Virus record (IMG/VR): IMGVR_UViG_2703718808_000018
Coordinates: 1 to 12,452 of that record
Origin: a virus
Lineage: Duplodnaviria > Heunggongvirae > Uroviricota > Caudoviricetes
Direction: 5' to 3' (one strand)
DNA length: 12,452 bases
Below the pieces are notes generated by a model. The model was not told where the DNA came from. It was given only the letters and a program-made list of their open reading frames with translations, and ran no database searches. Both the position numbers and the translations under genes were made by a program. Each line of letters opens with the position of its first letter. Within the stretch, counting starts at the first letter, position 1. This document shows, piece by piece, positions 3,849 to 5,695 of this stretch.

Positions 3849-3943
3849 TGTGTTTAAACCTCATTACAGATTTCAGGGTGAACGAATCCCTGCCATTGCT
3901 GGCATTTTTAATCCGTTGGTATGGCGTTAATATGGCTGGTGGG

Positions 3944-4132
3944 TTATCCAGCCGGTATTTCGTTATTCAGGTACAGCGATACTTTGTTTAACGGGAGACA
4001 TTCACCGGAAATTTTTTGCTCGTCTCTTGCCTGATGGCAGGATTCTTTACTGGCATAAATACCGGTAATCACATTCTGTGGCTCACCTGTTATCAGAAAA
4101 ACCGTCATCATCAGTGCAAACGCTGAACTCAC
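3944..4132 (-). CDS. Hypothetical small protein (uncertain)
   Basis: 62-aa ORF whose first codon is GTG and which overlaps the stop of the upstream ORF by 4 nt; internal ATG ATG at 4111-4106 is an alternative start. No recognisable domain. Kept only because it is co-oriented and coupled with its neighbour. Confidence 0.3.
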   Translation of the reverse strand: MSSAFALMMTVFLITGEPQNVITGIYASKESCHQARDEQKISGECLPLNKVSLYLNNEIPAG

Positions 4133-4317
4133 TGCTGCCCTCCGAAAATGCCAAGTTCAAGAAGGGCAATTCTGGAGAGTATGGAATTATCATTGAGAAG
4201 ATAAGGCTCATATTTTCTCATCCTGATGGCGTCTTCAGTAAACTCCCGGTTACTGAGCAGAATACCAATATCAAAACACCCTTCAGACGTATTAACGTTT
4301 GGTAGTGACGTTTCCAT
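4129..4317 (-). CDS. Hypothetical small protein
   Basis: 62-aa ORF with ATG at 4317 and GAGGA 7 nt upstream, same strand as the exo/xis/int operon. No recognisable domain. Confidence 0.4.
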   Translation of the reverse strand: METSLPNVNTSEGCFDIGILLSNREFTEDAIRMRKYEPYLLNDNSILSRIALLELGIFGGQQ

Positions 4318-4875
4318 TATCGCGTCCTCAACAATGAATTTTGTGATGTGGTGCCTGGTGCCTCCAGGTGACGTTAACCAGTTAACAATTAACGCCGGAT
4401 TGTTAGTTGATGTCTGTTACGCCAGTAAAAGACCGCTTGTTTTAACTGTTCCGCGTGCGCTTAGCCGCATTCACCGCATCACAAAATACACTTTAAAAAT
4501 GGCGGATATCCATTTCCGCCGAATCACCAGAAAAGTGATAACAGAGGTTGTTGTGGCGGTGTTGTCACTCAGGCGTATGGTCAACCTGACAACCCGGTGC
4601 ATTTTCTGGAGCAATGGAGGAAGCCCCAGCCATACTTACCGCCGCGCCATTTCGCGGATTGCCACAACCGGAAGCGTACGGTCGAATTAAATTTAACGAC
4701 GACCTGTACAGAGAGACTAACTTCGCCGTGCGCTTTCGTGTTATGCCCTGACTTTTCAGGGATATGTTCTTTCAGTAAACTGTCAGTGCCGGATTCTTAT
4801 CCGTGTCCGGCGCACGACCACACGTGACAGCGTGTTGGTCTCCATCATTAACCCGGAACCTCTATGGAGGATAAT

Positions 4876-5049
4876 ATGCAAGTTGATATTATTAGCCCTG
4901 TAACTGATCCATATGCTTGCGCACATCAGGCTCTTCTGGCACTAATCAACGCTGGAAAAATTGAAAATTCCGCTATGTGCTTTGAAGAGTTGAAACAACT
5001 TGTGCGCTTGTATGAATATATTAAAAAACAATCACAAGATACGGCGTAA
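4876..5049 (+). CDS. Hypothetical small protein (57 aa), opposite strand to surrounding early-left genes
   Basis: ATG at 4876 with GGAGG 5 nt upstream (the ORF track's start at 4864 lacks an RBS); stop TAA at 5047-5049. Convergent with gene 5130..5543 and AT-rich. No recognisable domain. Confidence 0.45.
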   Translation: MQVDIISPVTDPYACAHQALLALINAGKIENSAMCFEELKQLVRLYEYIKKQSQDTA

Positions 5050-5069
5050 TATTTAAAATACTTTCTGTT

Positions 5070-5099
5070 ATATGGGCCTGCTATAATGCTGGCCCATAT
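5070..5099. terminator. Perfect 9-bp inverted repeat (ATATGGGCC / GGCCCATAT) with 12-nt loop between convergent genes; possible bidirectional terminator
   Basis: Stem-loop lies between the stop of the plus-strand ORF (5049) and the stop of the minus-strand ORF (5130). U-tracts are weak on both strands, so terminator function is uncertain. The loop contains TATAAT. Confidence 0.3.
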
Positions 5100-5129
5100 T
5101 TCTAACCCCTCTATAAGAAAAACATATTA

Positions 5130-5543
5130 TTATGGCAATTTCTTCGGTAGCTCTTCAGAAAGCTGAGTTGTTTTAATTATGGTTTTTAAATAATCATCGC
5201 TTTCACATTTGAGTGATTCTATGGCAATCCAGATGCGGGCTTCGGTGCCTGCATTTGGTTCCAGTTGCTGTAGACGTTTTGCATCTTCCAGTAGTAAGGC
5301 GATAACGTGTTTCAGCTTCTCATCATTCGCTTGATTCTTGTTTTCAGGCGAATTTTGTCCGCCGAATGGCCACTTTTCTTCGTACAGCCCGATAAAGGTT
5401 CGACGCACGTTACCGGATATATTATCGACGGTTTCTTTTTCTACGGTACTCAGGTCAAGAGTCGCCAGTTGAGAACGAACTATATTCGCTGCCATTTCCT
5501 GGAATGGTACTGGTAAATCTTTAAATTCCATCGTCAACCTCAT
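5130..5543 (-). CDS. Hypothetical protein, first larger gene of the putative leftward early operon
   Basis: 137-aa ORF. ATG at 5543 overlaps the stop of the upstream 50-aa ORF (TGATG coupling); an alternative ATG at 5531 (MEFKD...) has GAGG 7 nt upstream. No recognisable domain. Confidence 0.6.
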   Translation of the reverse strand: MRLTMEFKDLPVPFQEMAANIVRSQLATLDLSTVEKETVDNISGNVRRTFIGLYEEKWPFGGQNSPENKNQANDEKLKHVIALLLEDAKRLQQLEPNAGTEARIWIAIESLKCESDDYLKTIIKTTQLSEELPKKLP

Positions 5544-5695
5544 CAGTCAGTGTTTCTGGCTAACCAGCGACGCGCGCCAGCTTCAGTTTTAAACATTTTG
5601 CTTCTGGTATACGTCATCGCGGTAAACGTGCCGTCCTGGTTGGGAAAGACGCCGCACACCAGAGATTCATTGTTGCCAAGATTGAGCATATCCAT
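5543..5695 (-). CDS. Hypothetical 50-aa protein (MDMLNLGNNESLVCGVFPNQDGTFTAMTYTRSKMFKTEAGARRWLARNTD), below the ORF-track cutoff
   Basis: Hand-translated from the minus strand. ATG at 5695-5693 with TGAGG 5 nt upstream; stop TGA at 5545-5543 overlaps the next gene's ATG. It is the first ORF downstream of the putative leftward promoter at about 5903-5874. Confidence 0.4.
   Translation of the reverse strand: MDMLNLGNNESLVCGVFPNQDGTFTAMTYTRSKMFKTEAGARRWLARNTD

Follow-up and report, generated by a model that had tools for sequence, protein, structure and literature searches.

The stretch between positions 3849 and 5695 of the window, the 12,452-nucleotide (nt) viral DNA analyzed here, very probably represents the repressor-controlled early-left dicBF operon, transcribed from the leftward promoter (PL), of a Qin/Rac-type lambdoid prophage of Escherichia coli, as judged from its sequence. 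The dicBF operon has been under study since about 1990. The identification is based on an identical prophage annotated in RefSeq, family matches above curated cut-offs, colinearity with K-12, and operator half-sites shared with the repressor-cro region. Over all 1847 bases the stretch matches, at 100% identity, a prophage that E. coli O178:H19 strain 2012C-4431 carries next to potCD; for that copy RefSeq lists dicB and genes for a DUF1482 protein, a DUF1391 protein, and two hypothetical proteins. Along the minus strand the order is operator-controlled promoter, ydfA, a gene for a 133-amino acid (aa) protein, a leader, a small RNA in the slot of DicF, a spacer, dicB, and a ydfD-like gene (Table 1), and a pairwise alignment with K-12 is colinear from the end of ydfC through ydfD. 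A first-pass annotation had described the stretch as uncharacterized, with only small or unrecognizable open reading frames (ORFs). It overlooked dicB (4317-4129) and the ydfD-like gene (4132-3944), the genes that do the known work of the region, and the 50-aa ORF that it listed (5543-5695) encodes a YdfA/DUF1391 protein. The stretch is clearly homologous to a known gene region, the outcome that the first-pass annotation had itself named as contrary to its proposal, and the identical sequence is partly annotated in RefSeq. The system is a known one, and what is still of interest is a short allele in the DicF slot, the cassette-like variation seen there, and two proteins to which no function can be assigned.

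The gene identities can be read directly from family matches. In addition to its full-length Pfam match, DicB scores 103.2 bits with the NCBIfam model NF049927 (cut-off 100) and carries the name dicB in RefSeq. The ydfD-like gene overlaps the dicB stop codon by 4 nt, and its product matches phrog_1092 (E = 3e-33) and the K-12 lysis protein YdfD. Comparison with the K-12 Qin locus (ydfA-ydfB-ydfC-dicF-dicB-ydfD-ydfE under dicBp and DicA) shows a like gene order and strand logic, with identities of 82% for YdfA, the first gene after the promoter, 58% for DicB, and 47% for YdfD, and about 81% for the non-coding segment, which contains near-invariant blocks. Both loci have a promoter under an operator common to the repressor-cro region, a small-RNA slot with a shared 5' seed and terminator followed by a shared structured spacer, and a conserved non-coding leader and spacer, which in the window are homologous to the K-12 parts that supply RNase III and RNase E processing sites and may serve likewise. 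The window differs from Qin in carrying the unrelated 133-aa gene and a reverse-oriented 57-aa ORF instead of ydfB and ydfC, an interval that also varies in other described dicBF loci (PMC5069750). Further differences are a relBE pair between the repressor gene and the promoter, a 10-nt loop in place of nt 21-47 of K-12 DicF, and the downstream neighbor, which is an 809-aa exonuclease in the window and ydfE and IS2 in K-12.

The promoter found by the scan (TTGACA-18-TAGATT) lies within the perfect 17-bp inverted repeat, so that the OL-like promoter (OL, leftward operator) of the first-pass annotation stands. Three further copies of the repeat's half-site lie between the repressor gene and cro (6888-6904, 6913-6929, and 6937-6953), and none of 200 shuffles reaches five half-site matches, which together indicate a genuine OL-type operator. 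The repressor scores 52.8 bits with the NCBIfam DicA model, against a cut-off of 101. The 3' part of the untranslated leader is also conserved in K-12 upstream of ydfA. The relB/relE-family pair sits between the repressor gene and PL and is followed by a terminator-like hairpin (5951-5936); strain IBS28 is arranged likewise, and in K-12 Qin no insert of this kind separates dicA from dicBp.

Of 5426 complete E. coli genomes, 4723 contain a match to the segment 4318-4875; that in K-12 is the Qin ydfC-dicF-dicB interval, at about 81% identity. The first-pass annotation found no convincing protein-like frame in 4320-4860 and suggested a structured RNA; the segment indeed lacks a credible coding frame, and it is predicted to hold a DicF-slot small RNA and an RNase III-type long-range helix. 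Across 78 distinct sequences the non-coding leader is conserved and has predicted helices, yet compensatory changes are lacking; covariation tests were uninformative for leader and spacer alike, given their too high conservation and purely one-sided changes. The small RNA, with ends taken from K-12 by homology, combines the DicF 5' seed with a 6-bp GC-rich terminator hairpin (4520-4501) and a U-tail, as found by terminator scan and folding. The 27-nt interior of K-12 DicF (nt 21-47), which pairs with ftsZ, is replaced by a 10-nt loop. A segment-level test gave -18.8 kcal/mol for pairing of the K-12 interior with the ribosome-binding site of ftsZ, compared with -2.7 kcal/mol for the loop. Whole-molecule duplex energies are inflated and were used only relative to shuffles, complemented by the segment-level test; against shuffles, pairing of the short allele with ftsZ is lost (184 of 200 shuffles do as well), as is that with pykA (106 of 200), whereas that with xylR is kept (11 of 200). 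This outcome agrees with the published division of K-12 DicF targets into ftsZ and pykA for the 3' arm and xylR for the 5' arm (PMC5069750). The short allele should consequently regulate a narrower or different set of targets and leave division inhibition mainly to DicB.

A 154-aa plus-strand ORF (4226-4690), antisense to the start of dicB, the spacer, and the small RNA, is almost certainly spurious, being absent from the RefSeq annotation and overlying conserved RNA elements. The minus strand at 4495-4564 also resembles AgvB, the anti-GcvB small RNA of enterohemorrhagic E. coli, at 15 bits and an E value of about 1 through the terminator together with a CACAACA motif immediately upstream of the short RNA, a similarity that is probably due to chance.

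The short allele is present in 442 complete genomes, including O157:H7, where it is placed directly between ydfA and dicB. It spans distant lineages, including O157:H7 and Escherichia albertii, and its variants keep the stem, as in a GGCGG to GGUGG change that still pairs. When genome contigs were scanned with one DicB sequence, the one locus obtained was from E. albertii. To describe the slot more widely, viral contigs were scanned with the invariant flank downstream of the terminator, which gave 119 loci and, with further loci, 128 flank matches for analysis. At least 10 cassette types occur between the upstream anchor and this flank, differing in seed, hairpin, or both (observed in the window at 4495-4533 on the minus strand and at loci L005, L006, L013, L016, L025, L062, L100, L103, L115, and L132:4906-5003). 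Among the 128 matches the K-12 type accounts for about 80, the short type for 9, and a further type for about 19; the last is KilS, which is annotated in the K-12 Rac prophage as a small RNA upstream of kilR. Rfam calls DicF only in the three cassette types that retain the K-12 hairpin. The paper that named KilS does not mention DicF, and an earlier survey of dicF conservation was limited to sequences more than 99% identical (PMC5069750). A limited literature search returned no description of these slot alleles, which is not proof of novelty.

By position, DicF and KilS appear to be alleles that share a single conserved processing scaffold. We tentatively extend this to a broader proposal, which we consider a real possibility though short of probable, in which the DicF position is a swappable small-RNA cassette slot of Qin-, Rac-, and Shiga toxin (Stx)-type prophages and the short allele is a functional, unannotated small RNA that has kept an xylR-type seed and dropped control of ftsZ and pykA; separately, the insert with the 133-aa and 57-aa ORFs could encode an undescribed function expressed in the lysogen. 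If this is correct, near-invariant flanks, comprising the precursor leader, the terminator tail, and the RNase III helix, would frame at least 10 exchangeable sets of seed and hairpin, among which DicF and KilS would simply be two alleles that have names.

It is rather unlikely, although not to be dismissed lightly, that the locus is instead a decaying remnant, with a short RNA that arose from dicF by deletion and no longer functions, a 57-aa ORF that is no real gene, a 133-aa gene left over from a fusion, and dicB and ydfD as the only parts that still matter. The missing DicF interior and the failure of Rfam to recognize the RNA are what decay would produce, as are a 57-aa ORF that is frameshifted in three of four aligned related copies and unannotated in many, and a 133-aa protein resembling two joined modules that occur alone or in other combinations elsewhere. 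However, the seed, stem, and U-tail of the short allele are intact, and the allele has been kept in its 442 genomes across distant lineages with stem-preserving variants. The slot is also filled by many other cassettes that are not DicF, among them the experimentally verified small RNA KilS, and the integrase, excisionase, repressor, and replication genes nearby are intact.

The spacer contains a long-range helix that covers the dicB Shine-Dalgarno sequence GAGGA (4329-4325) and encloses two conserved hairpins. RNAalifold analysis of 36 distinct spacers gives a 28-bp closing helix with 99.5% of cells paired, in which the tail region UUUUUAAAGUGAAUUUUGUGAUGCGGUG is joined to CACCGCAUCACAAAAUUCAUUGUUGAGGA, the latter including the dicB Shine-Dalgarno sequence. 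The location of the helix fits the RNase III cut reported to yield the 72-nt form of DicF in K-12 (PMC5069750), making it a likely RNase III site, and cleavage there would free the dicB ribosome-binding site. An equivalent spacer precedes kilR in K-12 Rac.

We infer transcription, processing sites, RNA ends, and all activities at the locus by homology, and on this basis the operon could work as follows. When the DicA-like repressor leaves the OL-type operator, leftward transcription would run through ydfA, the 133-aa gene, and the antisense strand of the 57-aa ORF into the leader. In K-12 the precursor is cut by RNases III and E (PMC10448788), and DicF occurs in a 53-nt form as well as in forms of 72 and 190 nt (PMC10448788, PMC5069750); a comparable cleavage would be expected here. 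The intrinsic terminator would then release a small Hfq-type RNA from the DicF slot, while read-through would cross the structured spacer, whose helix would join the region of the terminator tail to the ribosome-binding site of dicB, and reach dicB and the ydfD-like gene. DicB blocks division through MinC and blocks ManYZ-dependent (lambda-type) phage entry (PMC6832061), and YdfD is a lysis protein (PMC8835842); division arrest, an entry block, and lysis by the YdfD homologue would follow. The expectation of the first-pass annotation that this position carries host-takeover or exclusion functions is well founded in DicB.

Several observations weigh against this account. DicB is only 58% identical to K-12 DicB, and the conserved part is the N-terminal half, the C-terminal half being different. 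The Rfam DicF model (RF00039) defines a 52-nt RNA whose long terminator hairpin contains the sequence that pairs with ftsZ. It gives 76.7 bits for K-12 and misses the short RNA, with no match in the window at the gathering score, nor at E ≤ 10 on a 181-nt stretch; what the two loci have in common is limited to the 5' seed, outer stem, and flanks, and the DicF label therefore rests on position, seed, and flanks. The seed UUUCUGGU still forms an 8-bp run, including G.U pairs, with the Shine-Dalgarno region of ftsZ, and some effect on ftsZ is therefore possible. Variation in the spacer helix is one-sided, such that covariation neither supports nor refutes the helix, and the window copy has two mismatches, U.U and C.A. 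Finally, the stable hairpin of the low-GC insert might reduce read-through from PL to the small RNA and dicB.

This insert, which has a GC content of 0.39 compared with about 0.47 in its flanks, contains the two proteins without assignable function. The minus-strand ORF at 5130-5543 (137 aa), noted at first pass together with the 50-aa ORF, exists in the ORF map, although translation most likely starts at 5531 and yields 133 aa, as judged from a GAGG Shine-Dalgarno sequence 6 nt upstream of this start and from the MEFKDL with which every homologue begins. The 133-aa protein has no family in Pfam, NCBIfam, or PADLOC and no similarity to YdfB or YdfC, but it matches phrog_1363 (E = 1e-41; function unknown). 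A conserved N-terminal module (residues 1-53) is joined to variable C-terminal modules in its relatives, and in a search of 1.84 billion representative proteins all matches were phage mosaics of the E. coli type. Nothing was found in the PDB by profile search; the AlphaFold model is all-helical with low confidence (predicted local distance difference test, pLDDT, 59), and a BFVD fold search with it gave as sole match a 52-aa homologue of the N-terminal module.

The 57-aa ORF on the plus strand exists as described at first pass, but the evidence for a real gene is weak and its coding status is doubtful. It is found in 48 of 5426 complete E. coli genomes, its protein forms 7 near-identical clusters, all from E. 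coli, and no gene is annotated at 13 of the 30 copies listed. RefSeq labels the 57-aa product hypothetical. Three of the four related copies aligned have a 1-nt deletion in codon 10. This deletion is common to prophages (L005, L007, and L008) with different immunity regions (LexA-type, helix-turn-helix repressor/RelBE, and RacR-type), which indicates that the frameshifted form spreads by recombination and is not a one-off sequencing error. The structure model is a plain helical hairpin (pLDDT 71.6), for which Foldseek found nothing in the PDB at E ≤ 0.001. Matches by phmmer to designer pentatricopeptide repeat (PPR) proteins were rejected as repeat-summed artifacts, no single stretch passing. 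The stable hairpin between the 57-aa ORF and the convergent 133-aa gene includes the perfect 9-bp inverted repeat of the first-pass annotation as the core of 12-nt arms with 92% complementarity. It folds at -19.5 kcal/mol on the plus strand (z = -6.5) and at -18.0 kcal/mol on the minus strand, with none of 200 shuffles folding as well, and on the minus strand no U-run follows the stem.

The first-pass annotation regarded the 50-, 137-, and 57-aa proteins as candidates for an undescribed exclusion or anti-defense function; they have turned out to be a DUF1391 family member, a mosaic phage protein without a family match, and an ORF of doubtful coding status. In its narrower form, in which the 133-aa and 57-aa proteins constitute an undescribed superinfection-exclusion or anti-defense moron within the early-left operon, the proposal is improbable. 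It is consistent with the low GC content of the segment, with the strong Shine-Dalgarno sequence of the 57-aa ORF (GGAGG-N6-ATG), with the following hairpin, which could act as its terminator, and with amino acid differences that are mostly conservative between the two allele groups. For the reverse orientation, sieB of K-12 Rac, located at the same position between the DUF1391 gene and the small RNA, provides a precedent, and because of it we retain a low but non-zero probability for a 57-aa function expressed in the lysogen. On the other hand, neither protein has a family match, the best PADLOC hit for the two being a partial, non-significant match to HerA (E = 0.028). The promoter scan gave no convincing promoter upstream of the 57-aa ORF, the sole promoter-like site ending at its start codon. 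By our reading of the alignment, the two intact alleles differ by about 2 synonymous versus 6 non-synonymous changes, and the rarity and frameshifts of the ORF and the uninformative models argue in the same direction.

It is highly improbable that the ORF-poor segment is an HK022 put-type antitermination RNA or a member of the STnc100 family (RF02076), as could be suggested by the lack of an N-like gene in the operon and by a sub-threshold STnc100 match of the spacer (4285-4502, minus strand; E = 7e-5) with the shared motif UCACCNGGAGGCACCNGGCACC, since the putL and putR sites of HK022 (AF069308), compared directly with the window leader and spacer, show no similarity, the STnc100 scores are 33.0 bits for the window and 34.4 bits for K-12 (L002:2968-3177, minus strand) against a gathering score of 47, and the segment is colinear with the experimentally dissected dicF region of K-12. 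STnc100/PasD shares an approximately 22-nt motif and the hairpin layout with the dicF-dicB spacer, but its true members lie in the late regions of phages, close to Q and the lysis genes or downstream of stx2 (bioRxiv 10.64898/2026.05.13.724894; PMC12370729), and not in an early-left operon.

In the kilS-kilR region of K-12 Rac (racR-ydaG-ydaF-sieB-kilS-kilR-ydaE-racC-recE), the DUF1391 gene comes second, after ydaG, and in the window it comes first. In both, the DUF1391 gene is separated from the small RNA by a reverse-oriented gene, the small RNA ends at the conserved flank CCGCCCUUUUUAAAGUGAAUUUUGUGAUGCGGUGAAUGCGGCU followed by the shared spacer, and a small FtsZ-ring inhibitor and a large exonuclease come next. 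In contrast, KilS is 98 nt long with another seed and hairpin, the division inhibitor is KilR and not DicB, and the reverse gene is sieB, which encodes a known exclusion protein and is unrelated to the 57-aa ORF. The PL accessory genes of lambda (kil, sieB, and ral) hold an equal position between the recombination/exonuclease genes and the immunity region and share the theme of a small FtsZ-ring inhibitor made on derepression together with exclusion functions. Lambda and the window show no detected sequence relationship; a DicF-type small RNA is missing from this position in lambda, and the N/nut antitermination on which lambda relies was not found in the window.

Table 1. Features of the putative dicBF operon and neighboring genes in the window
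Feature	Position	Strand	Evidence or remark
PL/dicBp-type promoter, TTGACA-18-TAGATT	5903-5874	-	Promoter scan, 10/12 matches
Operator, perfect 17-bp inverted repeat	5878-5894 / 5902-5918 (5878-5918)		100% complementary arms
Operon 5' untranslated leader	5696..5873	-	Near-identical in O157:H7 TR01 and IBS28 prophages
ydfA homologue (DUF1391), 50 aa	5543..5695	-	Pfam PF07151, E = 2.9e-28
133-aa mosaic phage protein	5130..5531 (ORF to 5543, 137 aa)	-	Occupies the K-12 ydfB-ydfC slot
Stable hairpin	5070..5099 (arms 5070-5081 / 5088-5099)	both	Between convergent 133-aa gene and 57-aa ORF
Reverse-oriented ORF, 57 aa	4876..5049 (61 aa from 4864)	+	Coding status doubtful
Non-coding leader before small RNA	4534..4860	-	Homologous to K-12 ydfC-dicF interval, ~81-84% identical to Qin
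Short DicF-slot small RNA allele, UUUCUGGUGAUUCGGCGGAAAUGGAUAUCCGCCAUUUUU	4495..4533	-	Positional homologue of K-12 dicF
Structured spacer, terminator to dicB	4318..4499	-	Long-range helix 4499-4472 / 4353-4325
dicB, 62-aa cell-division inhibitor	4129..4317	-	Pfam PF05358, E = 2.6e-34, full length
ydfD-like gene (DUF1482), 62 aa	3944..4132	-	Pfam PF07358, E = 1.8e-14
809-aa exonuclease	1419-3848	-	ORF map
Excisionase	between integrase and 809-aa exonuclease	-	ORF map
Integrase	1-1119	-	ORF map
relBE pair	5970-6448	-	ORF map
DicA-like repressor	6476-6877	-	ORF map

The plus-strand genes beyond the repressor are cro, a YdaT-family gene, and replication genes. Only the last approximately 180 residues of the 809-aa exonuclease match a family (Rv2179c-like 3'-5' exoribonuclease domain, E = 1.4e-60), and no domain is assigned to the long N-terminal remainder, which includes an acidic low-complexity stretch. 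Further along the plus strand, a full-length sok antitoxin RNA (Rfam RF01794; 11349-11523; 113 bits, gathering score 59) overlaps a hok/mok-like 70-aa ORF (11461-11673) with a hydrophobic core, forming a hok/sok-type toxin-antitoxin locus.

The main value of the analysis is corrective, in that a textbook prophage module, whose proteins are already annotated for the identical sequence, had been flagged as an unknown region. Annotation based on Rfam misses most DicF-slot alleles other than the K-12 type, including the short allele, and counts of "dicF copies" in pathogens, as well as inferences on prophage control of ftsZ, are therefore incomplete. If functional as proposed, the short allele would uncouple metabolic regulation from division arrest, and the shared scaffold suggests a simple route to finding further prophage small RNAs and predicting how they are made.

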